Numbered from the stretch's first letter, positions 1 through 13,337 are shown. The stretch: 20,000 bases of DNA from an uncultured virus (IMG/VR IMGVR_UViG_3300025675_000001) (IMGVR_UViG_3300025675_000001), one strand, 5' to 3'. Notes: generated from the letters alone by a model not told the origin. Translations and numbers: made by a program.

Positions 1-159
1 AGCGGCATCGGCGCCATTGGCACCACCGGATCTGAGGATCCAGCCCTCCGCATAGAGGTAGCAGGCGACATGGTGCATGATCTTGAGGATCGGCTCAGGC
101 GTGTTCCTGGCACCGATCCCGGCATAGACCAGGTAAGGTTTCTCCTGAACGTCGATCAT
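1..159 (-). CDS. SLOG (DprA/Smf-like Rossmann) domain protein, 5' part only; runs off the window edge
   Basis: Manual translation from ATG 159: MIDVQEKPYLVYAGIGARNTPEPILKIMHHVACYLYAEGWILRSGGANGADAA. YAGIGxRxTP and LRSGGAxGAD are typical of phage DprA-like SLOG proteins. ATGA overlap with the stop of the upstream gene. Confidence 0.75.
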   Translation of the reverse strand, partial: MIDVQEKPYLVYAGIGARNTPEPILKIMHHVACYLYAEGWILRSGGANGADAA

Positions 160-587
160 GCATAAAGATCCTCTATGGCGTGTGACCGAGCGTGGGGTTC
201 GAGAACGATGTATTCCTGGCGCAGGACATTCCCGAAACCACGCAGACGGGGTGGATTGCGATAGAGCCAGAGACTGACGGTATCGATGAGATCCTCGGTC
301 AGACGGGCGATTTGTGCGCCATCCCACTGATCGCTGAATTCGCTGTCCAGGTTGATGTGCTGCTCGTTGTTCTCGAGGATCTCCTCGGCGATGTTCTCGG
401 CCACCAGGGCGGCCATGAAATCGGCCTGAAGATAGGCGCGATCGGCACAGGCCAACGTGATCGACCCCATGGTGGACTGGATGGCTCCAGCATGCAGGGC
501 CACTTCACGGGTGGGATAGGGCCCGAGATAACCTTCCGGATCACGGCCTTCTCCGACCCACCAGTAGAATTTTCCGTCGCTATACAT
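156..587 (-). CDS. Hypothetical phage protein (143 aa), paralogue of 580..999
   Basis: ATG 587 preceded by AAGGAGG RBS. N-terminus DGKFYWWVGEGRDPEGYLGPYPTREVA aligns with the neighbouring gene. Overlaps both neighbours. Confidence 0.8.
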   Translation of the reverse strand: MYSDGKFYWWVGEGRDPEGYLGPYPTREVALHAGAIQSTMGSITLACADRAYLQADFMAALVAENIAEEILENNEQHINLDSEFSDQWDGAQIARLTEDLIDTVSLWLYRNPPRLRGFGNVLRQEYIVLEPHARSHAIEDLYA

Positions 588-999
588 GGGAACCTCCTTC
601 ACCTTCTGGTTCGCCGATGAAATATTTGACATTGCGCATGGTGCCGAAGGCCCAGGTTGTCCCTGGATGCGCGATGAGCCATGTGGTGATGGCCTGCTGA
701 AAGGCGGTGTCGAGTGCCTTCAGGTCTTCATCGTTCCAGATCTGGTCGAGATCCGGGTAATCGTCACTGAAGCATTCCTCGTTTGCCTCGATGAGGCTTT
801 CGAGGATCTGCTCGACATAGAAATCCAGATTGATTTCAGGCCGCATCACGCTCTTATCGGATTCACAGATCGTGAAACCCGTGTCCTGGTAATCACTGCG
901 GCCGGTCTGGATCGCGATGTCTCTGGTCTCGAAGGGGCCATGATAGGCTTCAGGTTCAGCGCCCTGCCCGACCCACCATTTGAAGTTTCCGTCACCCAT
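580..999 (-). CDS. Hypothetical acidic phage protein (139 aa), paralogue of 156..587
   Basis: AAGGAG RBS upstream. N-terminus DGNFKWWVGQGAEPEAYHGPFETRDIA. Operon-like packing. Confidence 0.8.
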   Translation of the reverse strand: MGDGNFKWWVGQGAEPEAYHGPFETRDIAIQTGRSDYQDTGFTICESDKSVMRPEINLDFYVEQILESLIEANEECFSDDYPDLDQIWNDEDLKALDTAFQQAITTWLIAHPGTTWAFGTMRNVKYFIGEPEGEGGSHV

Positions 1000-1014
1000 G
1001 TCGGGTCTCCTTGT

Positions 1015-1470
1015 TTACCAGCAGAGCGAAAGATGTTCGCCAGGCTGGATATCGATGTGCGACAGGCGGAAGGCGCGAAGCGCGGTCTTCTCAGGATCGA
1101 ACGCCCGAAGGAACCAGCCTGGCTCGTAGCCGTAGCCGGGCTGCTGGATGTACTCGACGCCCAGCGGCATCACCCGTCGGGTGCGCTTTTCACCGCGGTG
1201 GTTGGTGTAGGTGAACTCGACGAAGATGCGCGAGGAAGGCTCGTGGGCCTCACGCGGACAGGGCGGCCCGAGAGCCAGAACCGCCCTGCCCTTCTCGGTA
1301 AGCTGGCCGCCGAATTTCTTGGTGATGAGGCCCGAGCCCTTGAGATATTCGAGCGCCACACCGATCGATGAACCCCACGGCGTGGGATCCTTCTGGCCAT
1401 CCACCTCTTGCAGGATGCGGTATTCGAACGGTGTGAGCTTGGGCAGTTGATCCACAGGATGATGGTTCAT
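1015..1470 (-). CDS. Winged-HTH plus WYL-domain protein (151 aa)
   Basis: GGAGG RBS. N-half LTPFEYRIL...ALEYLKGSGLI...QLTEKGRAVL is wHTH-like. C-half VEFTYTNHRGEKRTRRVMP...GWFLRAFDPEKTALRAFRLSHI matches the WYL signature. Confidence 0.8.
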   Translation of the reverse strand: MNHHPVDQLPKLTPFEYRILQEVDGQKDPTPWGSSIGVALEYLKGSGLITKKFGGQLTEKGRAVLALGPPCPREAHEPSSRIFVEFTYTNHRGEKRTRRVMPLGVEYIQQPGYGYEPGWFLRAFDPEKTALRAFRLSHIDIQPGEHLSLCW

Positions 1471-1481
1471 GACAGCCTCCG

Positions 1482-2090
1482 TCAGACTGGCAAGTCGAGC
1501 AGCTTGTTGAGCTGATGGATCGGAACAGCCGGCAGCTGGGTGGGCTTCTGGCCGGTCATATACGGCCGTGCAAAGGGTTCGATCTCCGGCCAGAGCTCGA
1601 TCAGCTTGGTGAAGGAGTTGGTACTCTGGAGCATCCGCATTGAGGTGCGTTCGGCTTCCCGGACCGTTTCCTCGAGTTTATTCCGCTCGTCTTCCAGTTC
1701 CTGGAAGCGGATGCTGAACAGGTGTGTGTCTTCGTAGCTCTTGACGCAGATGCCCTTGTGACGTTGCTGGATCCGATGACAGACGACTTCCTTCTTGTAA
1801 TCGGCATAGCGTTGCAGGAAGCCGTGGAAAGTCCCGGTGAACAGGATCCGCACATAACCCGTACCGGAGCTGCCGAAGCGGACATCGAGCCCGGTTTCTT
1901 CGGGCAGCCAACCTTTGGGCAGCTCTGCCATCTTGCGGCGGATCTCAGGGGTGTAGAGATCCAGATAGACCTGGTTGATCAGGTGGGCACGCTTCTCCGT
2001 CACCTCGTTGATGAGCTTGCGGAAGCGACGGATCAAAAGCGCTTTCTGGATGCGCTCACGGGTCTCGTTGATCAGGCGTGGAGTGCTCAT
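1482..2090 (-). CDS. Nmad5-like (nucleotide-modification-associated domain 5) protein (202 aa)
   Basis: N-terminal RLINETRERI and C-terminal TKLIELWPEIEPF...LPAVPIHQLNKLLDLP are typical of Nmad5 phage proteins. GGAG RBS. Confidence 0.7.
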   Translation of the reverse strand: MSTPRLINETRERIQKALLIRRFRKLINEVTEKRAHLINQVYLDLYTPEIRRKMAELPKGWLPEETGLDVRFGSSGTGYVRILFTGTFHGFLQRYADYKKEVVCHRIQQRHKGICVKSYEDTHLFSIRFQELEDERNKLEETVREAERTSMRMLQSTNSFTKLIELWPEIEPFARPYMTGQKPTQLPAVPIHQLNKLLDLPV

Positions 2091-2227
2091 TGTGGTAGCT
2101 CCAAGGTGCGATTTGGAAGGGAGTTGGTTTCACGGGTGATTCCCGTCGGTTTTCGGGAAAAAGTTGAAGTTGGTTTCCCGTCGCGTTGAAACTGAGTTGA
2201 ATTATATTCAACTTGGGTAGAAAACGC

Positions 2228-2710
2228 TCAACTATTTTCTTCAATATATTTTGAAAGAAATCCGTCGCGATAAGCCATCAGGATGCGACCCAGATGGTTA
2301 TGGCCTCTGCCACGGCAGACACCCCAGAAGATGTCACCCCAGTGGTTGTCTTCGCGCAGCTCCCGAGGCGCGGTGGCCAGGAGCTTCTGCTTGAGATCGG
2401 GGTTCTGTTCGTACTTGGCCCGGGTGATCTCACCCATGATGCGGATCTTGATCTGATCCCAGTCGGGACGCATCTCGAGCTTCTTTCCCAGACGCTTGGC
2501 AGCGCCGGGTGAGACACATTCGGAGATGTCTTTCCAGTCTTCCCAGTTCAGGCTCTTGGCTGCCTGGTAGGCATGTTCGGAGGTGGGAAAGACCAGCGTG
2601 CCCATGACGATCGGCGCCGGCCAGAAGTTGGAGAGGAAACGAAACTCGCCCTGGAATCCGCGGATCGGCTGCGGGATGGGCTTCGACAAGCTGTCTGCGA
2701 TATTGTCCAT
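2228..2710 (-). CDS. NADAR (YbiA-like) ADP-ribose/N-glycosidase family protein (160 aa)
   Basis: Motifs FLSNF, FPTSEHAYQAAK, AKRLGK, RPDWD, AKYEQN, DIFWG, NHLGRILM. ATG 2710 with CAGGAG RBS. Confidence 0.93.
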   Translation of the reverse strand: MDNIADSLSKPIPQPIRGFQGEFRFLSNFWPAPIVMGTLVFPTSEHAYQAAKSLNWEDWKDISECVSPGAAKRLGKKLEMRPDWDQIKIRIMGEITRAKYEQNPDLKQKLLATAPRELREDNHWGDIFWGVCRGRGHNHLGRILMAYRDGFLSKYIEENS

Positions 2711-2729
2711 GATACTGTCGCTCCTGATG

Positions 2730-2761
2730 AAAAGGGCCACTTCCCTTGTGAGGAAGTGGCC
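2730..2761 (-). terminator. Intrinsic terminator-like hairpin just upstream of the NADAR RBS
   Basis: GGCCACTTCC(2735-2744)-7 nt-GGAAGTGGCC(2752-2761), a 10-bp stem followed by CTTTT on the minus strand. Confidence 0.6.
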
Positions 2762-2950
2762 AAGGTTCCAGATCAGGGAGGTGCGATCTGGTGAGGGGAA
2801 ACAACGTCAATCTCACAGAGTTATGAGATGATTTCCTCGGTGACGGTGAGGACCACCGCATCCGTCAGGTGGATGAATCGATCACTTCACATGGTACCCT
2901 CCTTTGTTGGAACCCACACACCCTCAATCCTTCTTTCATATGAAGGAGGG

Positions 2951-3523
2951 TCAGTGCGTGTTCAGGGTAAAGAAGCAGTCCAGCGCCGAGCGGATGGCCT
3001 TATCGGCGCCGAAGAGAGAAAACCGGCCGATGTCCTCGACGGCAATTTCATCAGCTGTGCCGAGGAGATGCAGCGTGACCGGATTGAGGTTGCGAAACGC
3101 CACGATCCCCTTCTTGGGAATGATCGCTTCGAAGACCCCGGATTGGCCATTGGCTTCGCCGCCCATCATGGCGATGAAGTGATGCGTGGTGTTTCCGACA
3201 TCCACCTTGGTGGCCGGTACGTTGAGGAAGACCAGAGCGGCATCCTGTTGGCTGAAGGTGACAGCCATGTGCATGGTGTCGTAGCGGGCGATCATGGTGC
3301 AGTTCCTGGTTCGGGTTGAACCATAAACCTGCCAGGTACCGAGATCAGCCCATTTTGCTGTGCCTGGATCAAGAGGTTGCGCCTGGGCCTGACCCAGAAG
3401 GCTACTCATGCCGATCGAGCGGTCATTGACCCGTTCGAGGACATCCCCACAGAAGCGGAGAACCAGAAGGCCCACCAGCAATGCGAGGAAGATGCCAATC
3501 TTTTTCAATGCATAGATGAACAT
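2951..3523 (-). CDS. Hypothetical membrane-anchored or exported protein (190 aa)
   Basis: Basic then hydrophobic N-terminus (KKIGIFLALLVGLLVLRF). AAAGGA RBS. Distal cysteines could form a disulfide. Confidence 0.75.
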   Translation of the reverse strand: MFIYALKKIGIFLALLVGLLVLRFCGDVLERVNDRSIGMSSLLGQAQAQPLDPGTAKWADLGTWQVYGSTRTRNCTMIARYDTMHMAVTFSQQDAALVFLNVPATKVDVGNTTHHFIAMMGGEANGQSGVFEAIIPKKGIVAFRNLNPVTLHLLGTADEIAVEDIGRFSLFGADKAIRSALDCFFTLNTH

Positions 3524-3556
3524 GGTGTGTTCCTTTCTGGTTCAGGCCTTGAGGGC

Positions 3557-3874
3557 TCAGGCTTCGGTTTCGGGATCGGATGGAGAGAGCAGTTGCAGCA
3601 CCTTGTGGAACCCGACATTGAAGGTCATGGCTCGCAGGTAATCCTGGCCCTTGCGGGTCAGTTCAGGCACCGTGCTCTTGCGGTTCTTCACGCTGCGGAT
3701 GAGACCGTGCTCAAGCAGGATACCGGTCAGGGTCGAGCCCATCTCGTAGCCCATGGCGGCTTTGAGCACGCCGGCTTCGACGACACGTCGTTTGGGCTCA
3801 CGCCCGAAACTGGCATTGCCATGGACCCGTTCGATTTCCTCATCGGAGATCAGGAGCTGCGTCACTTGAGGCAT
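3557..3874 (-). CDS. Hypothetical phage protein, possible wHTH (105 aa)
   Basis: ATG 3874 with GAAGGA RBS. ILLEHGLI...ELTRKGQDYL is a wing-like motif. Confidence 0.75.
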   Translation of the reverse strand: MPQVTQLLISDEEIERVHGNASFGREPKRRVVEAGVLKAAMGYEMGSTLTGILLEHGLIRSVKNRKSTVPELTRKGQDYLRAMTFNVGFHKVLQLLSPSDPETEA

Positions 3875-3901
3875 GGTATTTTCCTTCAAGCTGTCGGGTG
3901 G

Positions 3902-3939
3902 AAATAAAGAGGGGAATGCAGGATTTCTCCTGCATTCCC
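3902..3939 (-). terminator. Intrinsic terminator after the gp2-like gene
   Basis: Minus strand GGGAATGCAGGA-GAAA-TCCTGCATTCCC (12-bp stem, GNRA loop) followed by CTCTTTATTT. Confidence 0.8.
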
Positions 3940-3950
3940 TTTGGTTTGGT

Positions 3951-4445
3951 TCAGCCCGCTGCCGGGACGAGATCCTCCTCGGTGGCCTGAGCCTTCTGGC
4001 TGGTGGGCATGGTGGTCGGCTTGGAACCGCCCATCAACATGCTGGCCAGATCGACGGCGTACTCGTTCTCCGCCTTGGAGACTTCGAGATCCTCGTTCAC
4101 CCGACGCAGCCGGATCACGAGGGTCGAGACCTCGACTTCCTCACCGGGTGCGAGGCTCATGCCATAGTGCTGAAGGGCCTCCAGCAGCTGGTTGCGAGCG
4201 GTCTGGAACTTGACCCAGTCTTCGTTCTGGCCCTTGACCTCGGTGGGCTTCATCGTATCGACCGGCATACCGATCGGGAGATTGACGAAGCGACCATTCA
4301 CCTCGTAGCCGACATTGAGCCAGAGCTTCGCCCGGTCCCGCTGTTCGGGTGCATTCTGCATGGTGCCGAAGGGCATACGCTGATTGCGGTTGTCACGCTG
4401 AGCGGGTGCGGTGGCCTGCGGTGCATTGAAATCCATGATACCCAT
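3951..4445 (-). CDS. gp2: N4 gp2/Drc-like ssDNA-binding RNAP II co-activator (164 aa)
   Basis: AKLWLNVGY...FVNLPIGMPVDT...ARNQLLEAL...LAPGEE...IRLRRV matches the N4 gp2/Drc family signature. Located in the early region near the genome end. Confidence 0.88.
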   Translation of the reverse strand: MGIMDFNAPQATAPAQRDNRNQRMPFGTMQNAPEQRDRAKLWLNVGYEVNGRFVNLPIGMPVDTMKPTEVKGQNEDWVKFQTARNQLLEALQHYGMSLAPGEEVEVSTLVIRLRRVNEDLEVSKAENEYAVDLASMLMGGSKPTTMPTSQKAQATEEDLVPAAG

Positions 4446-4501
4446 TGTGGTAGCTCCTGAGTTGGATGTGGGGATGTGGGTTTGATGGAAGGCTCTAACC
4501 C

Positions 4502-4520
4502 TCCAAGGGGCGCAAGCCCC
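4502..4520 (-). promoter_or_regulatory. Hairpin resembling a virion-RNAP promoter (tetraloop variant) upstream of gp2
   Basis: + (template) strand TCCAA-GGGGC-GCAA-GCCCC has the same stem as the 5782 hairpin. No good U-tract for a terminator. Confidence 0.5.
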
Positions 4521-4543
4521 AACCAGAGAAACGGAAACAGGGA

Positions 4544-4825
4544 TTAGCTCACGAGAGCCAGATCCTTGGTCATGCTGTAAAGCAGGGTGAGATGCTTGAA
4601 CTCACGCTGCGCCAGCAGGAGTGCAGCATCACGGTCCTCGACATAGAGATGCTGGCCTGTGGTCAGATAGGCGACGTACCAGCGGGTCTTATCCCGAGAG
4701 CTCGGCCAAGCCGACATCACGAGCTTGGGACCATAGGCCCCGTCGTCGTAGGCATTGGCGATGAACAGGTCGATCTGCTCTTCGTCGGCTTCGAGGATGG
4801 GTGGAAACGGATCAGGTTTGATCAT
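4544..4825 (-). CDS. Hypothetical early protein (93 aa)
   Basis: ATG 4825 (MIKPDPFPP...) with GAGGA RBS. Overlaps the upstream gene. Confidence 0.7.
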   Translation of the reverse strand: MIKPDPFPPILEADEEQIDLFIANAYDDGAYGPKLVMSAWPSSRDKTRWYVAYLTTGQHLYVEDRDAALLLAQREFKHLTLLYSMTKDLALVS

Positions 4826-5051
4826 GATCGTTTTCCTCTGGTTCCACCTGTTCGACACAGGCGGTCTGGGCTGAAGCTCCGCTGTAGGAACAGATCCAGC
4901 GATGCTTGTTCTTGAGTTCGGAAGGCTCCTTGAAAGGCTCCTTGGTGGACACACGGATGGTGTCGAACGAGAGGTTGGTCAGCACACCTATGGTGCCTAT
5001 GGTCATGAGGGTCACACCGAGGAACCCCGTGATCAGACAGAAGGATCTCAT
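4812..5051 (-). CDS. Small membrane protein (79 aa)
   Basis: AAGGAG RBS. Hydrophobic N-terminal segment FCLITGFLGVTLMTIGTIGVL. Confidence 0.65.
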   Translation of the reverse strand: MRSFCLITGFLGVTLMTIGTIGVLTNLSFDTIRVSTKEPFKEPSELKNKHRWICSYSGASAQTACVEQVEPEENDHDQT

Positions 5052-5096
5052 GAGAGGTCTCCTTGGTTCGAGGGAATGTGGGAATGTGGGTTTGCT

Positions 5097-5297
5097 CTAC
5101 TGGATCGTTGTCCAGAGATGGTCCTTTGTTTCCTTCTCTTTCAGGAAGGTCTCGTAGGCTTCCAGCTGGTCGAAATCAGGATCGACATAGCAGTTGGTGG
5201 TGATGAACAGGAGCGGACGATCGTCCCGTGTCTCTGCCCGTTCAATGGCCTCGGCGAAGGTATCGAAGTTGAACGTGGTCTTGAAGAGCGAGGGCAT
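5097..5297 (-). CDS. Hypothetical early protein (66 aa)
   Basis: ATG 5297 (MPSLFKTTF...) with GGAGG RBS. Confidence 0.7.
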   Translation of the reverse strand: MPSLFKTTFNFDTFAEAIERAETRDDRPLLFITTNCYVDPDFDQLEAYETFLKEKETKDHLWTTIQ

Positions 5298-5406
5298 GTT
5301 GGCCTCCATCAAGTTGAAGCTATTTTCAGGACAAGTTGAAAATAGGCTATCGGTCTATTAGGGGGTCTCCCCCGGTGCCATGGTTAGGTCACCGGGGTAG
5401 TTGGGT

Positions 5407-5745
5407 TCACGGGGTGGTCTCGGTAAACAAGGCCTCCAACTCTGCGAGGTTTTCGTTAAACCTTTTCGTCAGGTTGGCGTTACCGTGTAGTTCTCGCTCC
5501 AGTGCATCCTCGATCTTGGCTTGGTTCTTGGCAGAATCGAGGAAGAGATTACGCTGCCAATGGTGATCCTCCACTTTGTGCTGGACGATCTGTTGGTGCT
5601 TGGCACGCTGAACATAGCGGTCAAGCATGTCGATACTGGAAGCACCAGTGTCAACGATTTGGGTGACGCTCTGGGCTACCGAATTCACGGTATTTAGGAG
5701 AGCGACAACGGTGGATGAGGTGGACTTGGCGATGGACGTAGACAT
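5407..5745 (-). CDS. N4 gp1-like first early protein (112 aa)
   Basis: ATG 5745 with GGAGGA RBS. First gene behind the vRNAP hairpin promoter. Size and the T/V/S-rich helical N-terminus resemble N4-like gp1. Confidence 0.65.
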   Translation of the reverse strand: MSTSIAKSTSSTVVALLNTVNSVAQSVTQIVDTGASSIDMLDRYVQRAKHQQIVQHKVEDHHWQRNLFLDSAKNQAKIEDALERELHGNANLTKRFNENLAELEALFTETTP

Positions 5746-5774
5746 GGTGATATCCTCCGGATGAAAGGGAATGA

Positions 5775-5794
5775 TCCGGAAGGGGCGAAGCCCC
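5775..5794 (-). promoter_or_regulatory. N4-type virion RNA polymerase hairpin promoter
   Basis: Template (+) strand TCC-GGAA-GGGGC-GAA-GCCCC: 5-bp stem, GC-GAA-GC triloop core. Taking the central loop purine (5788) as -11 puts +1 on C5777 of TCC, as in N4 early promoters. The transcript would start GGA 32 nt before the gp1-like ATG. Confidence 0.85.
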
Positions 5795-5900
5795 GAGTGT
5801 AGGTGTGGTGGGAAATGAGGTGGGGGGTAGTGTGAAAAGTGTGTGGTGTGTTCCCGGGGGGGGAGGGTTTTCAGAATGGAGTCCCACCGGTGTGACAAAC

Positions 5901-5989
5901 CTACTGCCAGACGTAATTATGAGGTTCGCCAAACCCTGCGATCCTCTACTGCCAGACGTAGGTGTGGGATTCGCCAGACCCTGCGGATC
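5901..5989. repeat. Two-copy 45-bp imperfect direct repeat
   Basis: CTACTGCCAGACGTA-N9-TTCGCCA(A/G)ACCCTGCG at 5901 and 5946. Confidence 0.9.
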
Positions 5990-6017
5990 GTCATCTCGTG
6001 GATCAGTTTCACCATTG

Positions 6018-6193
6018 GAACCAGAAAGAGAAATGACCCTTCTCTGACCCTGCGGAGCATCTCTTGGAACCAGAGGGAAAGACGCATCCTTTGGAACCAG
6101 AAAGAGAGGATATCCCCTCCTTCGATCCGCCGAGCGATGCTCTCTTTGAACCAGAGGAAAATCCATCTCCCCTACCCTTCTCTCTGAACCAGA
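6018..6193 (+). repeat. Cluster of five GAACCAGA direct repeats
   Basis: Copies at 6018, 6067, 6094, 6148 and 6186, each followed by a purine run. Confidence 0.9.
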
Positions 6194-6204
6194 AAGAAGA
6201 GCAT

Positions 6205-6510
6205 CTCTTATTTTCAAATAATGATATACAAAAAATATTATGGGGATTTTTATATAGGGATTTTCCTTAATAATATATTGTATATCGTTTTATATATTAT
6301 CAAACATAATCCCGAAGGATTTTCTTTAAAACCGATTATATAGATAATACGTCTCTGATTTTCTTCATAATATATTATGAACTTAATACGCGAGATATTA
6401 TCTTCATAATATATTATGGAGTTAATAGAATAGGCTTTTCGAGATAATGTTTTTAAGATAATGGTCTTTTATTATATTTATAATATTATCTTTATAAGGG
6501 GGGTTCCCCC
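6205..6510. other. Very AT-rich non-coding tract with duplicated palindrome; candidate origin or terminal-repeat region
   Basis: Sharp GC drop. TCTTCATAATATATTATG at 6362 and 6401. Perfect palindrome TTCATAATATATTATGAA at 6364-6381. GGGGG-GTT-CCCCC hairpin at 6498-6510. Confidence 0.6.
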
Positions 6511-6615
6511 ATGATCCCTGGGTGAAACCTATCAGGTTTTACCAATAGCTTCGCCCGTCCGTCTTTTGTCCTTCTTTGAGAAGAAAAAAGGCAGAGGTAG
6601 GCCCGGTGAGGCAGG

Positions 6616-7401
6616 TTACAGCGTAGGGTCGGTAAAATGCTCTCTTTCCCTCGATCTGTAAAGCCCTCTCTTCACAGGAAGGGGGGGTCTTTTTTCTTCT
6701 GGCTCCCGAAAGGAAGGCCCCTTTGAAAGAGATGGGTATCCGTGGGGGTGGGTTTTTTGAACCCTATCAGGCTTCGAAACATCCTTGGATGTCCCCTTGG
6801 GACCACGCTTGAGCCAGGTCGTCCATTCCGCACAGACCACGGTGATCCTGTTCGGCAGGTTCTTGGCACCCCGGACACGTCGTTCTTCCACCTTGAGCAT
6901 GCCCATGGCACGGGCCTGACGGATGGCGTTCTGGGTGGTGGTACGAGACACCCCTGCCCGTGCAGCGATCTCGGCGAGGGTTCTCACACAAGCCCCCTTC
7001 CCTCTCCATTCATCCCCGATGATGCGCAGGACGGAGAGTTCGCCCGTGGTGAAATGAGCGGCGAGAGACGGAGGCACCGGACCGGTCGAAGCGAGCCGCC
7101 GACGGCGGGCGAGCGAAGACCGGGGGTCCGGTGCCGTCTGTTTGCGTCGGGGCGGGAAGATCGAAAACCGGGGACGGGAAATTTCTTCCCCCCTACGGGG
7201 GGAAGCGGATTTATTGCCAGCACTCCCAGCTTCAATCCCCTCCCCGCTTCGCAACAACTCGAGCTGCTCGGAGAATCGTTGTGCCTCGTTCTCGCTCAAC
7301 ATTCCCTGGGCCATCCCGCCCCAGATGGTGCGTGAGATCTCGTCGAACATCGTCCGGCCACGCGCCATCGACAGCGCGACCGTGATCTGGTCTGCCAGCA
7401 T
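6616..7401 (-). CDS. HTH-domain putative plasmid replication initiator (alphaproteobacterial Rep-like, 261 aa)
   Basis: HTH TLAEIAARAGVSRTTTQNAIRQARAMGMLKVEER and SLARRRRLA...FTTGELSVLRII...NLPNRITVV..EWTTWL resemble a Rhizobiales mobile-element HTH family. Divergent from parA. The Rep function is inferred from context. Confidence 0.6.
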   Translation of the reverse strand: MLADQITVALSMARGRTMFDEISRTIWGGMAQGMLSENEAQRFSEQLELLRSGEGIEAGSAGNKSASPRRGEEISRPRFSIFPPRRKQTAPDPRSSLARRRRLASTGPVPPSLAAHFTTGELSVLRIIGDEWRGKGACVRTLAEIAARAGVSRTTTQNAIRQARAMGMLKVEERRVRGAKNLPNRITVVCAEWTTWLKRGPKGTSKDVSKPDRVQKTHPHGYPSLSKGPSFREPEEKRPPLPVKRGLYRSREREHFTDPTL

Positions 7402-7461
7402 CTTTCATCCCTCAGCTTGGGATCCGGCAAACCTCCCCCGTTGCGAGAAATGACATTCCCA

Positions 7462-7491
7462 CTTGACGAAGGCTTCGAGCTTTGGGAATAT
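7462..7491 (+). promoter_or_regulatory. Sigma70-type promoter for the putative counter-transcribed RNA
   Basis: CTTGACG (-35, alphaproteobacterial CTTGAC consensus), 17 nt, GAATAT (-10, 7486-7491). Confidence 0.55.
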
Positions 7492-7496
7492 CGATG

Positions 7497-7568
7497 TCGC
7501 CAAACGTCGATATTTCCTCGGCCCTGCCGAATCATGTGACCCGCCCTCAGTGGCGGGTTTCGTGTTTC
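7497..7568 (+). ncRNA. Putative antisense copy-number control RNA (ctRNA) opposite the rep leader
   Basis: Bounded by the promoter above and a terminator ACCCGCC-CTCAGT-GGCGGGT-TTCGTGTTT (7539-7567). Begins with CGCCAA, complementary to a UUGGCG loop in the rep-strand leader. Confidence 0.55.
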
Positions 7569-7594
7569 TGGTCTCTCTGGTTCCCTTCTGGTTC
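7567..7594 (-). repeat. Tandem TCTGGT(TC) repeats (reverse complement of GAACCAGA) between rep and parA
   Basis: TCTGGTCT 7567, TCTGGTTC 7576 and TCTGGTTC 7587; the last two are 11 bp apart. Confidence 0.75.
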
Positions 7595-7766
7595 CAGTCG
7601 TCGAATCGTGGCGCAAATCAGATGCACCAACGCGGCATTGGAAACGGATCAGGGGGGTGCGTCAACCACAGCGTATTGGGTTGACTCATTTCGGGACATG
7701 CGCTGGGGGCTTACAATATCTTGTGAAATGTGTAAGGTTCCGGCTTCTGTACGGAGCAACCCCCAC

Positions 7767-8420
7767 ATGATCATTTCCTTCCTCAATCAGAAGGGTGGAG
7801 TGGGCAAGACAACCCTCTCCATCAATGTCGCAGGATACTTGGCCAATCAGGGTCACAAGGTTCTGCTGATCGATGCCGACAAGCAGGCATCTTCCTCGAC
7901 CTGGGCTTCGCTCAGGGAGGAGCCGACATTTCAGGTCGTCAACCTGGCCAGGAGCAATATGGCCAAGGAAGCGATCGCCATGGCGGCGGATTACGACCAC
8001 ACCATCATCGATGGACCACCCCACGCAGAAGAGATTGCGCGCTCGTGCATCATCGCCTCGGATTACGTGGTGTTGCCGATCGAACCGTCCGGTCTCTCCA
8101 CCTGGGCCACGGATCTGACCGTGCGGCAAGTCAAGGAAGCCCGCGATTTCAAGCCGTATCTGGAATGTGGGTTAGTGGTTTCCCGCAAAATAGGGAATAC
8201 GGTTATCGGGCGGGACATCCGCAACATGGCCGCCAATGTCGGCATGCCGATCCTCCAGACCGAGATTGAGCAGCGGGTGGCCTTCGCCGAGAGCCTGACC
8301 ATGGGGCAGACCATATTCGAATGGGCGGCGGAGAGCGCCGCCGCCCGCGAAATCGAGCAACTCACCAAAGAGATCATGAGCCATGTCGAAGAAGACGTTT
8401 TCACTGGTGCCGAAGCCTAA
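7767..8420 (+). CDS. parA: Type Ib ParA (ParF-like) partition ATPase (217 aa)
   Basis: MIISFLNQKGGVGKTT deviant Walker A, VLLIDAD, IIDGPP Walker B. No N-terminal HTH. GGAG RBS. Confidence 0.95.
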   Translation: MIISFLNQKGGVGKTTLSINVAGYLANQGHKVLLIDADKQASSSTWASLREEPTFQVVNLARSNMAKEAIAMAADYDHTIIDGPPHAEEIARSCIIASDYVVLPIEPSGLSTWATDLTVRQVKEARDFKPYLECGLVVSRKIGNTVIGRDIRNMAANVGMPILQTEIEQRVAFAESLTMGQTIFEWAAESAAAREIEQLTKEIMSHVEEDVFTGAEA

Positions 8421-8691
8421 CCAGAAGGTTCTCTCGGAGGAGCAGATCCGAGCCTATGAATCATCCGGTCCGGGCCATGACACCAACAAAGACAGCTACC
8501 GAACCCGTCCCGAGTTTGCCCACAAGACAGCTAGTGAGCCCATCAAGCGTTTGAGCCTCGATCTGCCACAATCCCTGCATCGCCGGTTCAAGATGGTATG
8601 CGTGGCAACCGATCGCAGAATGCTGGCAGAGATCCAGAACTTCATCGAGCAACGCACGGACGAACTGGAGAAGGAGGCCGGGATCAAATGA
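8383..8691 (+). CDS. ParG-like ribbon-helix-helix centromere-binding protein (102 aa)
   Basis: Overlaps the parA end. Flexible N-tail plus C-terminal KRLSLDLPQSLHRRFKMVCV...MLAEIQNFIE, an RHH signature. Confidence 0.85.
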   Translation: MSKKTFSLVPKPNQKVLSEEQIRAYESSGPGHDTNKDSYRTRPEFAHKTASEPIKRLSLDLPQSLHRRFKMVCVATDRRMLAEIQNFIEQRTDELEKEAGIK

Positions 8692-8804
8692 GAGAGGGAA
8701 GGGGCCGAGGAAACGCTGGGAGGAGCAGTCCCTTCCTCGGCCCCGATTCCCCGTCGCGGAAACCCACCAAACGCGCCAGGGAAACTGGAACAACCCTTTT
8801 GGGA

Positions 8805-8887
8805 TTTTCTCGAAAATGCGTCTTGAATATGCTACGAATTAATAGCAGAAATGTTTTCTCGTGCAAACGCATTTATTTTCGAGAAAA
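8805..8887. promoter_or_regulatory. AT-rich late-promoter region flanked by a 13-bp inverted repeat
   Basis: TTTTCTCGAAAAT (8805-8817) and ATTTTCGAGAAAA (8875-8887), with a partial copy TTTTCTCG at 8854. Directly upstream of the late operon. Confidence 0.5.
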
Positions 8888-8895
8888 GGGAACCC

Positions 8896-9687
8896 ATGAC
8901 GACGCCCTCTCTTTTCAACACGCCGCCGCTGCAACAGCCTCGAGCGGAACCAGCCCCGAACCAGAATCCGGTCGCTGAAGAAAGTCTGCCGGCTCTGAGC
9001 CAGGAAGAGGTGAAGCGCGCCTTGCCGGCGCATCTGCGCTCGGCCGTGACCCAGGAACTGACCGACAAGCTCAACACGATCGCTGCCGATCCGGTCATTG
9101 CCCAGAACATCCGCGACAATTTCGTGAGCTATTCAGGGATCCTGCGGGAAGGGAAATTCCGGGCCGACGAGTACATCAATGCCGTGGCCTATGTCAGCTA
9201 CAAGCTGATGGGCTATACCAACCATGACGCTTATACCCGCGTCTTTCCCCAGCGTTACGCCAATCTGGTCGCCAAGGGCACATTGCCCAAGGACATCGCC
9301 TCCATCGTGTCAGCCTACCACCGCGGTCGTCTGGTCAACCTGATCATGGAACAGTCCCTGGTGCCGACCTGGGTCTTGAATCAGGATCTCTTCCAGAAGG
9401 CCCTGAACGTCCAGGCCGATCTGATGCTGAACGCCAACTCGGAGAAGGTGCGCACGGAAGCGGCCAACTCGTTGCTCACCCATCTGAAGAAGCCTGAGGC
9501 CAACAAGGGCTTCCAGATCAACATCAACAACGAGGATTCCTCCGGCATGAAGGAAATGCGGGAGATGATGGTTCAGCTTGCCGAACAGCAGCGGGGTCTG
9601 ATTGCCGAGGGCAACATGAAGACGATCGATGTGGCAGGTTCCCGTCTGGTTCAGCGTCCCGCACCGGAGGACGTGAGTGATGTCTGA
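8896..9687 (+). CDS. N4 gp69-like protein (putative terminase small subunit, 263 aa)
   Basis: IRDNFVSYSGILREGKF...YINAVAYVSYKLMG...AYTRVFPQRY...SEKVRTEAANSLLTHLK is characteristic of N4-like gp69. Immediately upstream of terL. Confidence 0.85.
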   Translation: MTTPSLFNTPPLQQPRAEPAPNQNPVAEESLPALSQEEVKRALPAHLRSAVTQELTDKLNTIAADPVIAQNIRDNFVSYSGILREGKFRADEYINAVAYVSYKLMGYTNHDAYTRVFPQRYANLVAKGTLPKDIASIVSAYHRGRLVNLIMEQSLVPTWVLNQDLFQKALNVQADLMLNANSEKVRTEAANSLLTHLKKPEANKGFQININNEDSSGMKEMREMMVQLAEQQRGLIAEGNMKTIDVAGSRLVQRPAPEDVSDV

Positions 9688-11326
9688 GGTCGCCGACGAC
9701 CACATCATGCACTCCATGTCGGATCGGGTCATCATCAAGAAGGCTCTGGATGAATGGCTCGATGAGGTCGATTACGCGGATCTCAACGACGGCTCCTACG
9801 TGCCTTCGCAGTTCTCCCTGATCTTCATGAATTTCATCAAGCTGGTGAACGGGGAGGAAGGCGAGAGCCACAAGACCCCGCCCGTGCATCTGAAGATGCT
9901 CGACAAGCTCACCAGTCCCGCAAGCCAAATCGTCAACCTGTGTTTCCGTGGTGCGGCCAAGACCACGCTCTTCTTCGAGTACCTGATCCTGTTCCTGGCC
10001 TTCTACGGCTACCTGCCGGGATTCGGCAAGATCGAGGCGATGATCTACGTCTCCGATTCGATGGAGAACGGCGTCAAGGCAGCCCGCAAGAACGTCGAGT
10101 TCCGCTACCACAACAGTGCGTTCCTGCAGGAATGGATCCCCCAGGCCCACTTCACCGACAATTACATCGAGTTCACCAACCGGGATGGACACCGGCTGGG
10201 CTGCAAGATGTTTGGCGCCAAGACCGGTCTGCGCGGTACGAAGATCTTCGGCAAGCGCCCGCCGCTGGCCGTGCTCGACGACCTTGTCTCGGATGACGAT
10301 GCCAAATCCAGGGCTTCGATGGAGGCGATCAAGGACACGGTCTACAAGGGGGTGAATTACGCTCTGGATCCGACCCGCCGCAAGATCATCTTCAACGGCA
10401 CGCCTTTCAACAAGGACGACATCATGATCGAGGCGGTCGAATCCGGCGCCTGGGATGTGAACGTCTGGCCGGTCTGTGAACGCTTCCCGTGCTCGAAGGA
10501 GGAGTTCATCGGCGCCTGGGAGGACCGCTTCGATTACGACTTCATCGTCGAGCAATACCAGAATGCCGTTCTGACCGGGAAGGTCGAGGGCTTCATGCAG
10601 GAGCTGATGTTGCGCATCTCCTCCGAAGAGGAGCGTCTCGTTCAGGATGCCGAGATCCGGGAATATTCCCGCGTCCAGCTGCTCAGCCGGCGCAACCAGT
10701 TCAACTTCTACATCACCACCGACTTCGCCACCTCCGACAAGCAGACGGCGGATTTCTCGGTGATCTCGGTCTGGGCCTACAATTCTCAGGGCGACTGGTT
10801 CTGGGTCGATGGTGAATGCGAACGCCAGACCATGGACAAGACCGTCAACACCCTGTTCCGGATGGTCTCGGAATACCGGCCACAGAGTGTCGGGATCGAG
10901 GTCTCGGGTCAGCAGCTGGCCTTCATCAAGTGGCTGCAGTCGGAAATGATGCAGCGTAACATCTGGTTCAATTTCGCTTCTTCGGAGAAGTCCGGCGCCC
11001 CGGGCATCCGACCGATCCAGAACAAGCTCACCCGCTTCAATCTGGTGGTGCCTCTGTTCAAGGCCGGCAAGATGTATTTCCCGCAGGAATGGAAGACCTC
11101 GAAGATCATGGGGCACTTCTATGGCCAGATCCGCCTGGCCACCAAGAACGGACTCAAGGGCAAGGATGACTGCATCGATACGATCTCGATGCTGATGTAC
11201 CTGAATGCCTGGAAACCGACCCAGGAGGATGAGCGGCCCATGATCGGGCACAATGGCGGGCCGGATATGTTTGCGGATGATGAGATTGAAGAAAATCCCT
11301 CATCCTTGAGCTCTTATATCGTTTGA
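9680..11326 (+). CDS. terL: Terminase large subunit, N4 gp68-like
   Basis: FRGAAKTT Walker A, LAVLDDL Walker B, FNGTPF, nuclease motifs YITTDFA and DDCIDTISML. GGAGG RBS (GTG 9677 is an alternative start). Confidence 0.96.
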   Translation: MSEVADDHIMHSMSDRVIIKKALDEWLDEVDYADLNDGSYVPSQFSLIFMNFIKLVNGEEGESHKTPPVHLKMLDKLTSPASQIVNLCFRGAAKTTLFFEYLILFLAFYGYLPGFGKIEAMIYVSDSMENGVKAARKNVEFRYHNSAFLQEWIPQAHFTDNYIEFTNRDGHRLGCKMFGAKTGLRGTKIFGKRPPLAVLDDLVSDDDAKSRASMEAIKDTVYKGVNYALDPTRRKIIFNGTPFNKDDIMIEAVESGAWDVNVWPVCERFPCSKEEFIGAWEDRFDYDFIVEQYQNAVLTGKVEGFMQELMLRISSEEERLVQDAEIREYSRVQLLSRRNQFNFYITTDFATSDKQTADFSVISVWAYNSQGDWFWVDGECERQTMDKTVNTLFRMVSEYRPQSVGIEVSGQQLAFIKWLQSEMMQRNIWFNFASSEKSGAPGIRPIQNKLTRFNLVVPLFKAGKMYFPQEWKTSKIMGHFYGQIRLATKNGLKGKDDCIDTISMLMYLNAWKPTQEDERPMIGHNGGPDMFADDEIEENPSSLSSYIV

Positions 11327-11388: not shown

Positions 11389-12105
11389 ATGAAAGTCATC
11401 GAACTCTTCCGTCAGCTCTCCTATGGCGAGCTGTCCAATCTCTCGGTCAGTCGCTCCGGATCCGGGGAGATCCTCCAAGAGAAATGGCCCCAGATCCTGC
11501 AGCACACCAATGATGGTCTGCTGGCGCTGTTCACGCGCTTCATCCTGCGGGAAAAGCATGTGCTGATCGAGCAGGTGGCCCACATCACCAATTACCATCT
11601 GCATCCCAAATTCGCCGAATCCTCCGCCTCCACAGCCGAATTTCCCTACATCAAGGACATGCCTGAGGAACCCTTCATCGATGATGTGGTGAAGATCCTG
11701 CGGGTGCAAAGCGTGGAAGGCTGGCCCTATCCGCTGAACGATGCCGGGCGGGAGGATTCGCTCTTCACACCCCAACCGCATGTCCTGCAGGTACCCCGTC
11801 CGATCGCTGGTGATCCGCTCTCCGTGGTCTACCAGGCGCAGCATCCCTTGCTGGATGACCGGCTCGGCGGTCCGGACAATGTTCTTGACCAGATAATCCA
11901 TTTGCCGCATTATCTTGAAAATGCGCTGAAAATGTATATCGCGCATAAAGTTTTCAGCCATATGAATGGCCAAGAAAATCTGATCAAGAGCCAAGAGCTC
12001 CTCGCCGCCTACGAAGCGTTCTGCCGCGATGTCGAGCAACGCGATCTGGTGAACCAAACCACCCATACGACGCATTCGAAGCTCGAGCAGAGAGGCTTTG
12101 TCTGA
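11389..12105 (+). CDS. N4 gp67-like head-tail adaptor/virion protein (238 aa)
   Basis: LSYGELSNLS...NDGLLALFTRF.LRE...SVVYQAQHP...KLEQRGFV resembles N4-like gp67. Synteny after terL. Confidence 0.85.
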   Translation: MKVIELFRQLSYGELSNLSVSRSGSGEILQEKWPQILQHTNDGLLALFTRFILREKHVLIEQVAHITNYHLHPKFAESSASTAEFPYIKDMPEEPFIDDVVKILRVQSVEGWPYPLNDAGREDSLFTPQPHVLQVPRPIAGDPLSVVYQAQHPLLDDRLGGPDNVLDQIIHLPHYLENALKMYIAHKVFSHMNGQENLIKSQELLAAYEAFCRDVEQRDLVNQTTHTTHSKLEQRGFV

Positions 12106-13337
12106 TGGCTATTCGGACCGTCTTCCACCCTGATGGGAACCAATCCGTACTCGTCGATAAGATGCTCGGCGAGTCCTACACCGTTGTGCGGACTGTGGCC
12201 GAGCACCTAGATTACGTGAAGCACGTCTCCACCCACATGGCGGAAGTCTTCCGGGTGCATGGTTCGATCAGTGCGATCGACAAGCTCAACGAGGAGATCC
12301 TCAAGCTCGATCTGCTCTACAACCACATCACCGAACTCCTGGTGATCGACACCAACATGCCGGCACTGGTTGGTCTTCACGACAACCTGTCGGCATTGCT
12401 GGATCTGTATGCGATCCGGGCCCAGCTGCTCGTGGTCCATGACGACCTCGCCAATGTGGTGACCGTGGCCACCAACATCGCTGCGGTGAACAGTGTCGCC
12501 ACCAACATGACCGAGCTGCTGGCCATTCATGCCAACCTGACCCAGCTGCTTTATGTCGCCGACAACATGCAGACCTTCCTCGATGAGCTCGACACGCTCA
12601 TGGCGATGGACGGGCGCATTGGACAGCTTGAGACCGATCTACCGGCGCTGACCACCCGGGTCACCAATGCAGAGAATGCGGCCGTGACCCTGACAGGCCG
12701 GGTCACCACGGCAGAGGATGACATTGATGCGCTCGAAGGGCGCATGACCACGGCAGAAGGCACGCTGACGACACATGGGGGCCGACTGAACACGGCAGAG
12801 GGGGATGTCACCAGTCTGCAAGGGCGAATGACCACCGCCGAAGGCGACATCACTGCGGTCGAAGGGCGAGTTACCACGGTTGAGAATGAGGCCGCCCTGC
12901 TGGAGCCCCGGGTCACCGCCGTCGAGAACGGCAAGCAGGATCAATCTGCCAACCTGACCACGCTGGCCGGGATCACCCCCGGCGCCACAGGCCAGGCCCT
13001 GCTGGAAACCACCACACCTGCGGCAGCCCGCACGGCAATCGGCGCCATCACCGCCAGCGAACTGATCGTCGGCAGTATCACGCATGACTGGCCGGCGCTT
13101 GCCGACAACGCCTCGGATTCCCACGACTTCACCCTGAACGGCGTGGCGACAGGGGATGTGGTGCTCGGGTTCTCCATCAATCTGGGAGCATCCACGAACC
13201 GCGTGCTGATGTCAGCCCAGGTGACAGGCGCCAACACCATCACGGTGTCACGCTTCAACCTGTCCGGGGTCTCCGTCGATCTGACCTCGGCCACACACCG
13301 TTTCGTCGTTCTGCCTCAGGCCAACTGGGGTCTGTGA
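12105..13337 (+). CDS. N4 gp66-like appendage/fibre protein with coiled-coil stalk (410 aa)
   Basis: N-terminal LVDKMLGESYTVVRTVAEHL anchor typical of N4-like fibres. 14-aa R(V/M)TTAEGD repeats. C-terminal beta-rich domain. Confidence 0.75.
   Translation: MAIRTVFHPDGNQSVLVDKMLGESYTVVRTVAEHLDYVKHVSTHMAEVFRVHGSISAIDKLNEEILKLDLLYNHITELLVIDTNMPALVGLHDNLSALLDLYAIRAQLLVVHDDLANVVTVATNIAAVNSVATNMTELLAIHANLTQLLYVADNMQTFLDELDTLMAMDGRIGQLETDLPALTTRVTNAENAAVTLTGRVTTAEDDIDALEGRMTTAEGTLTTHGGRLNTAEGDVTSLQGRMTTAEGDITAVEGRVTTVENEAALLEPRVTAVENGKQDQSANLTTLAGITPGATGQALLETTTPAAARTAIGAITASELIVGSITHDWPALADNASDSHDFTLNGVATGDVVLGFSINLGASTNRVLMSAQVTGANTITVSRFNLSGVSVDLTSATHRFVVLPQANWGL
12651..12929 (+). repeat. About seven 42-bp (14-aa) coding repeats forming a coiled coil
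   Basis: RVTNAEN, RVTTAED, RMTTAEG, RLNTAEG, RMTTAEG, RVTTVEN, RVTAVEN at 14-aa spacing. Confidence 0.85.

Follow-up and report, generated by a model that had tools for sequence, protein, structure and literature searches.

Can a phage of the N4 type be inherited as a plasmid? The question is raised by a 20,000-nt stretch of DNA (hereafter the window) from the 74,263-nt genome of an uncultured virus (IMG/VR IMGVR_UViG_3300025675_000001), in which a 2.1-kb module made of a winged-helix gene, parA and a parG-like gene lies between the end of the early genes and gp69. The length of the genome is typical for Schitoviridae; the scans of open reading frames (ORFs) reported here cover the window, i.e. 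20 of 74 kb. Phages of the N4 type are classed as lytic in textbooks, and their use in therapy and biocontrol has been widely proposed. The original prediction, made from the sequence alone, held that this one carries a complete plasmid replicon together with a partition cassette, and can persist as a circular extrachromosomal prophage. Our answer is that it may: the phage rather likely carries a plasmid-maintenance module by which it would persist as a low-copy plasmid prophage or carrier-state episome.

A partition pair of plasmid type in an N4-like genome

The ORF listed for parA extends from 7482 to 8420; homology begins only at the ATG at 7767. From there, the product starts with MIISFLNQKGGVGKTT and scores 239.8 bits against the NCBIfam model ParA_partition (cut-off 180), over profile positions 1-203 of 203. 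It has the small size and the deviant Walker A motif of type Ib ParA proteins and no N-terminal DNA-binding domain, which bears out the divergent type Ib parA of the original prediction. The protein encoded by the overlapping downstream gene matches, by itself, no family at 0.01 (the best was RHH_10, with an E-value of 0.036). Its 85 homologues (39-73% identity) all share the basic N-terminus (MSKKTF..APKPK), a GHDT motif and a C-terminal strand-helix-helix pattern (KRLSLDLP..LH.RFK..C). The best match of known structure for a profile of 40 of them is ParG of TP228 (PDB 1P94, 4.3e-5); Pfam ParG (PF09274) is matched by 13 of the 40 and RHH_10 by 10. Via this family profile, the small ribbon-helix-helix (RHH) protein that follows ParA in type Ib systems is found here too, and the gene had rightly been called ParG-like.

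The plasmid provenance of the pair is seen at the DNA level. The 925-nt parA-parG stretch matches nine plasmid records: eight are Rhodobacterales plasmids with 68-74% identity (about 70%), three of which align over 99% of the stretch, and the ninth match amounts to 61 nt in a Mycolicibacterium plasmid. The ParG-like protein matches the same eight plasmids (48-57%), where its homologues follow parA. In both plasmids inspected, a gene for 'replication initiator protein A' comes directly before parA-parG, at the start of the record. The DNA from 5800 to 9000 has no match in the phage collection. At the level of sequence, a type Ib partition system of the plasmid type is established.

The surrounding genome is that of an N4-like phage, as predicted. 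By tblastn, the best of the 484 phage records matching its terL is Rhizobium phage RHph_X2_28B (Schitoviridae, Xoxocotlavirus), with 75.6% identity. In agreement with an assignment to the Schitoviridae, terL, gp69 and gp67 are in the N4 order, opposite in strand to the early genes; from 8.8 kb on, the plus strand carries N4 late genes, ordered as in N4, among them the gp66-like appendage gene that had been announced for the right flank. All genes at 1-5,900 lie on the minus strand. PHROG families are matched by 8 of the 15 minus-strand ORFs scanned in 1-6217 and by none of the nine plus-strand ORFs tested in 1-5,900, which had no match of any kind, and N4-like relatives contain homologues of five minus-strand early-region ORFs. 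Because the minus-strand early homologues extend to 5,900 and the plus-strand late genes start at 8.8 kb, the window is read as spanning the junction of the N4 'left' (early) and 'right' (late) ends, in an orientation reversed with respect to N4. Two early features of the original prediction were not retained: the gp2/Drc label put on the ORF at 3951-4445, which has N4-like homologues and a PHROG carrying no function, and the hairpin for a virion RNA polymerase (vRNAP), since the two 45-nt repeats at 5901-5985 fold no better than shuffled sequences on the minus strand (z from -0.87 to +1.28). A giant vRNAP gene is not present in the window.

Module and phage genes are contiguous. In each of the four metagenome runs concerned (4/4, hypersaline lake), the window is contained without a single difference in a Logan contig measuring exactly 74,263 nt, and the cassette is joined to phage genes on both sides. 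The start points of the contigs differ among the four runs, and one run splits the window across the contig ends with a 30-nt overlap; shifted starts and overlapping ends together indicate a circular assembly graph. A chimeric join at the cassette edges, which would have spoken against the original prediction, was thus not seen: the join is the same in all four assemblies. A 7,852-nt IMG/VR record is identical from the cassette through terL and gp67, and an identical Rep-like protein is recorded on 12 contigs, the longest of 74,853 nt.

The winged-helix gene and the repeats

The predicted Rep-like gene with a helix-turn-helix (HTH) is present as a winged-helix gene; its product falls in no known initiator family. 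No function is assigned to its PHROG, residues 124-192 weakly match three phage PHROGs for 'replication initiation' (270, 391 and 4617), and its nearest Atlas clusters often carry HTH_36. In the AlphaFold model (mean predicted local distance difference test score, 75), a bundle of three helices at the N-terminus is connected by a disordered, arginine-rich linker to a single winged helix. The profile and structure searches that had been suggested for 6616-7401 thus returned a winged HTH (wHTH) and the weak initiator PHROG matches on the one hand, generic winged helices and no Rep family on the other.

What points to an initiator is the setting in which the family occurs. Homologues of the Rep-like protein are found in 87 PLSDB plasmid records, mostly from Methylobacterium and other Hyphomicrobiales. 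ParA lies at most 1.3 kb from the homologue in 10 of the 19 distinct elements fetched, and is annotated within about 2.5 kb of it in each of three further plasmids (3/3). Six of the seven plasmids inspected have neither a second annotated Rep nor a MOB-suite replicon type, and none of the 46 ORFs of at least 150 aa in two 14-kb plasmids carrying the homologue matches a Rep Pfam family at 1e-5. Because the family sits beside parA on small Hyphomicrobiales plasmids in which no other Rep was found, the protein is a putative initiator by analogy. The module as a whole reads as a mosaic, combining a Rhodobacterales-like partition operon with a winged-helix family of small Hyphomicrobiales and phage-like plasmids. 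If that family does initiate replication, it may explain how many small untyped Hyphomicrobiales plasmids replicate. It is also present on complete or near-complete viral contigs of non-N4 type: a scan of viral contigs with the single protein retrieved the window's own fragment and one distant locus only, and a scan with the family alignment retrieved 16 loci, none of them N4-like except the window's fragment. On three Methylobacterium/Methylorubrum plasmids of 20-23 kb (pMPOP02, pAMS5c and pMRAD08), the Rep-like/ParA module is accompanied by phage head, tail, tape-measure or terminase genes; none has a MOB-suite replicon type, and they are possibly defective or miniature phage-plasmids.

Repeats are present, as predicted: five direct copies of TGGAACCAGARRGA on the early-gene side of the Rep-like gene and inverted copies between this gene and parA. 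The 14-mer has 10 matches with at most two mismatches, against 0.53 expected by chance. Compared with the closest relative, a cassette-less element of Mesorhizobium (L034, see below), the window has an extra ~330 nt that holds the 45-nt repeats and the five-copy array; the dense array is specific to the cassette-bearing phage, and we give it an even chance of being the origin or centromere of the module. The inverted GGAACCAG-type copies (7565-7600) and the palindrome (7709-7738) upstream of parA form another candidate centromere. Direct repeats, AT-rich tract and inverted copies in the rep/parA intergenic region have, taken together, the form of an iteron origin with its operator. The AT-rich tract, possibly an unwinding element or else a native early or terminal region, is present as predicted with 22% GC; an equivalent in the cassette-less relative means that it does not go with the cassette.

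Of the antisense RNA that had been proposed, there remains a hairpin in the rep/parA intergenic region at 7538-7559 (plus strand), terminator-like and followed by TTTCGTGTTTCT (z = -3.3; 2 of 200 shuffled sequences fold as well). Rfam gave no match on 5500-9100, two sub-threshold matches to microRNA families in that interval being dismissed as chance. A scan for sigma-70-type promoters found none in the rep/parA intergenic region, and its six sites, all in or beside the AT-rich tract, are uninformative. The hairpin lies antisense to what is presumed to be the Rep-like gene's 5' leader, which is compatible with the idea of a countertranscript.

Relatives with and without the module

The closest relative found is L034, an N4-like element (terL 78% and gp69 58% identical) in a 727,017-nt contig of cultured Mesorhizobium yinganensis CN2-181 (C12:486833-508440). 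Its early genes adjoin its late genes, as they would in a permuted genome, and the cassette is absent: the AT-rich tract is followed by unrelated cargo genes, then by gp69. Tyrosine-integrase matches lie at 514.9 kb of C12 (about 16.5 kb from its terL) and at 540.4 kb (42 kb); the element is probably an integrated N4-like prophage. In N4 itself, the same slot holds gp70-72. The complete records of RHph_X2_28B, N4 and DSS3P2 lack ParA; of 38 N4-like terL loci from species-representative genomes, not one has a match to ParA or to the Rep-like protein at 10 kb or less from terL; and no N4-sized Schitoviridae record is among 60 records taken as a spread sample from the 365 phage records with ParA. 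With nearest relatives devoid of ParA and other genes in the slot of L034, the module is taken to be an acquisition. The alphaproteobacterial host of the original prediction is plausible, the nearest relatives being Mesorhizobium/Sinorhizobium elements for terL, Rhodobacterales plasmids for parAG and Hyphomicrobiales plasmids for the Rep-like gene.

N4-like elements endowed with ParA do exist in cultured bacteria. In each of the three isolate assemblies that contain an N4-like contig of genome length, this contig has ParA. In Larsenimonas suaedae DSM 22428, contig 6 (74,886 nt, with a 123-nt end overlap) has Rep_3 (9.8e-38), ParA and two small genes in succession on the same strand; a giant ORF reaches within 20 nt of the contig end, which suggests that it continues across the junction. 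In Vreelandella venusta NBRC 102221, contig 16 (75,948 nt) encodes a vRNAP (phrog_2206, E-value of 0) and has a RepL-family gene (2.2e-8) divergent from ParA. The third contig is from Acinetobacter sp. A47 (74,273 nt). The complete N4-like genome is a separate contig in both type-strain assemblies (DSM 22428 and NBRC 102221), and none of 22 tyrosine-integrase matches is on the N4-like contigs of the three isolate genomes. A closed 75,126-nt circle, pRBH2-3 (NZ_CP110465.1), was found in the clinical isolate A. baumannii RBH2. It carries an N4 gp56-type capsid gene, a 3,646-aa ORF, ParA, a small gene, an HTH_36 gene and a resolvase. Its identity with the Schitoviridae record vB_IME_Ab2712 (OK149216.1) is 98.4%, along 95% of 20 kb; no paper was found under the name pRBH2-3. 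Homology between its HTH_36 protein and the Rep-like protein was not counted (hhalign, 42%), the alignment being limited to the wHTH. Lastly, Pantoea phage G19 (PV483189.1, sewage, terL 66%) has ParA and an Arc-like RHH gene near its right end (64543-72819); a PemK/MazF-like toxin and a UmuD-like protein are annotated on it as well.

The features of the window are collected in Table 1. The region upstream of gp69 (8797-8890) reads as a native N4-like feature. The 1,766-aa tail protein is probably, from its gp65 position, a receptor-binding or depolymerase protein. At the left edge, a truncated ORF (1-327, minus strand) matches phrog_768, a DprA-like recombination-mediator protein (1.7e-12), with homologues in L034 and another locus, L004.

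Table 1. Coordinates of the module, its DNA elements and the flanking phage genes in the window
Feature	Position	Strand	Matches and remarks
Early-region ORF	3951-4445	-	N4-like homologues; PHROG without assigned function
Last of the N4-like early-region genes, next to the junction; left border of the variable slot	5407-5898	-	phrog_5020 (5e-17); homologue in Mesorhizobium element L034
Two direct repeats of 40-45 nt (CTACTGCCAGACGTA...CCCTGCG)	5901-5985		85% identity
Five direct TGGAACCAGARRGA repeats, candidate iterons or centromere	6012-6200	+	Spacing 49, 27, 54 and 38 nt
AT-rich tract with internal 21-nt repeats and palindromes	6201-6500		22% GC over 300 nt versus window mean of 58%
Rep-like protein with a winged helix, 261 aa; candidate replication initiator, family unnamed	6616-7401	-	phrog_15967 (1.7e-63)
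rep/parA control region, divergent	7402-7766		Hairpin 7538-7559 (+); three inverted GGAACCAG-type copies 7565-7600; palindrome CTTACA...TGTAAG 7709-7738
Type Ib ParA partition ATPase, 217 aa	7767-8420	+	Deviant Walker A KGGVGKT; NF041546; phrog_164 (1.7e-52)
ParG-like ribbon-helix-helix protein, 102 aa	8383-8691	+	Basic N-terminal tail; overlaps parA
Stable GC-rich hairpin closing the parAG unit, no T-run	8697-8745	+	-19 kcal/mol; z = -4.34; 0/200 shuffled sequences fold as well
AT-rich promoter-like region upstream of gp69, with 13-nt perfect inverted repeat; right border of the slot	8797-8890	+	Similar stretch before gp69 in L034
gp69 homologue	8851-9687 (probable start ATG 8897)	+	phrog_2109 (3.4e-93); 51% identical to N4 gp69
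N4-type large terminase terL (gp68)	9677-11326	+	phrog_38 (1.9e-94)
gp67 homologue	11389-12105	+	phrog_2125 (1.9e-71)
gp66-like appendage gene	12105-13337	+	
1,766-aa tail protein	14373-19673	+	Right-handed beta-helix domain PF13229 (4.3e-15); internal LNQxLNLT-type repeats

Plasmid prophage or lytic phage

Under the reading that we favour, the genome would circularise after infection through its terminal redundancy, and the winged-helix protein would bind the GGAACCAGA repeats beside the AT-rich tract and start a host-dependent theta replication. ParA, a Walker-type motor ATPase, would be stimulated by the basic N-terminal tail of the ParG-like RHH protein bound to repeated sites, and the two would segregate the genome copies. 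With its lytic programme repressed, the phage would then persist as a low-copy plasmid prophage or carrier-state episome instead of integrating. By analogy, such an episomal persistence is credible because N4-like elements of this kind occur in cultured bacteria. Phage-plasmids, as delineated by Pfeifer et al. 2021 (PMC7969092), have phage and plasmid genes on one replicon: here the partition genes answer to this, with the winged-helix gene as the putative replication gene. The other hallmark, the status of extrachromosomal replicon in a bacterial host, was found for the analogues only and not for the phage of the window. More tentatively, N4-like podoviruses may be an unrecognised class of phage-plasmids, with at least five lineages (those of the window, Acinetobacter, Larsenimonas, Vreelandella and Pantoea) that would each have its own initiator and a type Ib ParA and live as ~75-kb episomes, the winged-helix protein being the founder of a new initiator family; on this extension we are nearly evenly divided, with a slight leaning to doubt.

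A number of observations weigh against persistence as a plasmid. Several of them bear on the replication gene. Pfam searches gave only sub-threshold HTH matches, and NCBIfam and PDB profiles likewise gave only weak, sub-threshold HTH matches, with no initiator family; no established Rep family, such as Rep_3, RPA, RepC or RepL, was thus found in any of the three. Foldseek with the model retrieved only generic winged helices (CodY, MarR, ScpB and the DnaD N-domain), and a kinship with RPA-type RepA was rejected (hhalign probability of 1.2%). One plasmid, pAU20rrn, has another annotated Rep besides the Rep-like homologue, and no convincing iteron array was seen beside the homologues on four plasmids. 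The protein could be a repressor. Others concern the presumed origin. No site resembling a DnaA box (TTATCCACA, at most one mismatch) is present in 5900-6600, the two found in the whole window (2.48 expected) being outside that interval, and there is no CtrA box in the AT-rich tract. Since L034, without the cassette, has a 31%-GC tract at the same position, the tract is native to the lineage and not cassette-specific. Of the complete plasmid replicon and partition cassette of the original prediction, the ParA/ParG pair is what stands firmly; the putative initiator belongs to no known family, the AT-rich tract is not specific to the cassette and has no DnaA box, and the core of the repeats is dispersed.

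This last point calls for some detail. GAACCAG, the core of the TGGAACCAGARRGA array, is 10-20 times over-represented across N4-like loci from unrelated hosts, coliphage N4 included, and on both strands. The counts, relative to those expected from base composition, are 29 versus 2.6 in the window, 24 versus 1.1 in 12 kb of N4 (L031), 30 versus 2.8 in L034, 29 versus 2.7 in L035 and 26 versus 2.1 in L036. In the window, copies are found e.g. at 605, 3460, 3536, 4837, 8958, 9645, 10962, 13755, 16923-17996, 19508 and 19867; the motif also occurs in L003, and related words head the 8-mer lists of several other N4-like loci. No word of the window is more over-represented than the heptamer; its 8-mer form in this phage, GAACCAGA, has 23 copies where 0.72 would be expected, and the full 8-mer is nearly absent from the plasmids carrying Rep-like homologues. 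Some copies of GAACCAG are just upstream of ribosome-binding sites of early genes, and others fall in repeated LNQ/SGS coding motifs of tail genes. The passages of PMC9163698 considered here, on RNAPII, motif or middle, do not mention it. Because the heptamer is dispersed in the lineage, the array may serve a native phage function. Finally, the assemblies themselves leave latitude. A circular graph fits a circle and, equally, a linear genome with terminal repeats. The four runs may belong to one campaign and be the window's own source, so that a one-off chimera is excluded and independent replication is not given. The check for a replicon in a bacterial isolate assembly, called for by the original prediction, yielded no such assembly: the phage has been recovered only from those four metagenome runs, with no isolate, host or copy number, and no RNA data set is listed as containing it.

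The same observations can be accommodated by supposing that the module acts only during a lytic or prolonged (pseudolysogenic, lysis-inhibited) infection, with ParA and ParG positioning or distributing replicating genomes and the winged-helix protein regulating transcription, either of the phage programme or of the parAG operon, hence neither autonomous plasmid replication nor a stable prophage. This agrees with a generic fold whose best structural matches are regulators such as CodY and MarR, with the failure to match any known Rep family, and with an AT-rich tract and a GAACCAG motif that are native to the lineage. It agrees also with the deposition of the ParA-bearing Ab2712 and Pantoea G19 as sewage phage records with a named bacterial host, and with the pseudolysogenic stage that N4-like viruses can enter according to the text of Zheng et al. 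2023 (PMC10654107). We nevertheless regard it as unlikely, while not negligible. The parAG organisation is near-identical, and the DNA about 70% identical, to bona fide plasmid operons; the winged-helix family goes together with parA on plasmids where no second initiator is seen; other N4-like lineages have an unambiguous plasmid initiator (Rep_3, RepL) beside ParA; and in cultured strains the analogues take the form of a closed circle or of contigs of their own with the length of a genome, two of them in type-strain assemblies.

Still less probable, in our view, is a phage made temperate by an integrase encoded elsewhere in its genome, the module being accessory cargo (acting, for instance, in plasmid incompatibility or exclusion) or left behind by recombination with a plasmid. 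No integrase family was matched by any of the 35 ORFs scanned, in line with the original prediction; as the scan covers 20 of 74 kb, there may be an integrase elsewhere, which counts against plasmid persistence. The closest terL (78%) is in the 727-kb Mesorhizobium yinganensis contig, with integrase matches about 16.5 and 42 kb away, and 54 N4-like genomes with lysogeny hallmark genes are mentioned in the text of Zheng et al. 2023 (PMC10654107). Against this reading, all three genes are intact, with conserved motifs and their own terminator hairpin; the genome was assembled as a free circle without bacterial flank in the four runs (4/4), and the ParA-bearing N4-like contigs of three isolates have no tyrosine integrase. 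As to an assembly chimera, in which plasmid DNA would have been misjoined to a phage contig, the metagenomic origin and the plasmid relatives of parAG and the Rep-like gene could suggest it. It was rejected, as barely conceivable, on account of the identical 74,263-nt circle obtained with different starts and 0 differences in four run assemblies (where depth is one mean value per contig). Moreover, the few loose ends come from contigs of 4-5 kb that are unrelated and share about 20 nt, and the 7,852-nt record and the 12 contigs with the Rep-like protein tell the same story, with the caveat that the runs may be the window's own source.

If persistence as a plasmid prophage is confirmed, what would change? 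Integrase-bearing N4-like genomes and proviruses were presented as the first evidence of lysogeny in the text of Zheng et al. 2023 (mSystems, PMC10654107), and are, as far as that text goes, the only reported hint of N4-like lysogeny; the words 'plasmid' and 'partition' have 0 occurrences each in its main text. In the part of Pfeifer et al. 2021 (PMC7969092) considered here, no N4-like phage-plasmid is described, and few phage-plasmids are podoviruses, most being sipho- and myoviruses. We found no description of N4-like phage-plasmids in the literature, where the supplementary tables of both studies could list such elements. Podoviruses with an injected RNA polymerase would thus join the phage-plasmids, and the suitability of N4-like phages for therapy would have to be judged differently. 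A phage programme started by an injected RNA polymerase would also be amenable to silencing and inheritance as a plasmid, which raises the question of how it is silenced. Since related elements are present in publicly held strains (DSM 22428 and NBRC 102221), the question of lifestyle can be tested now.

Extrachromosomal prophages that have parABS instead of an integrase are familiar from P1, N15, VP882/phiHAP-1 and cluster A mycobacteriophages such as RedRock. The phage of the window resembles them as a tailed phage with a ParA-type partition cassette and no integrase seen in the window scan; it differs in that they are myo- or siphoviruses with known repressors, whereas this is an N4-type podovirus with an injected virion RNA polymerase, for which plasmid maintenance is proposed. 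With the proviruses in the text of Zheng et al. (PMC10654107), it shares the implication that the Schitoviridae are not all strictly lytic; those proviruses, however, rely on integrases, transposases or diversity-generating retroelements. In common with ParF/ParG of TP228, it has a small ATPase with deviant Walker A motif, an overlapping RHH gene with flexible basic N-terminal tail and repeats upstream of parA, but identity to ParG is low, the protein is below the Pfam ParG model and the system is in a phage genome. The Rhodobacterales repA-parA-parG plasmids (Phaeobacter piscinae pP14_e and Paracoccus sediminicola p6) have the same parA-parG overlap and order with about 70% DNA identity; there, an RPA-type RepA is encoded upstream on the same strand, whereas in the window an unrelated winged-helix protein has its gene on the opposite strand. 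Further counterparts are the analogues (pRBH2-3/Ab2712, Larsenimonas, Vreelandella and G19), which are N4-like genomes of roughly 73-76 kb with a type Ib ParA and a small protein, three of them with a putative initiator beside ParA. Their ParAs are only 30-34% identical to that of the window, their initiators are of the HTH_36, Rep_3 and RepL types and the genes are at other genome positions, all of which argues that N4-like phages acquired such modules independently.

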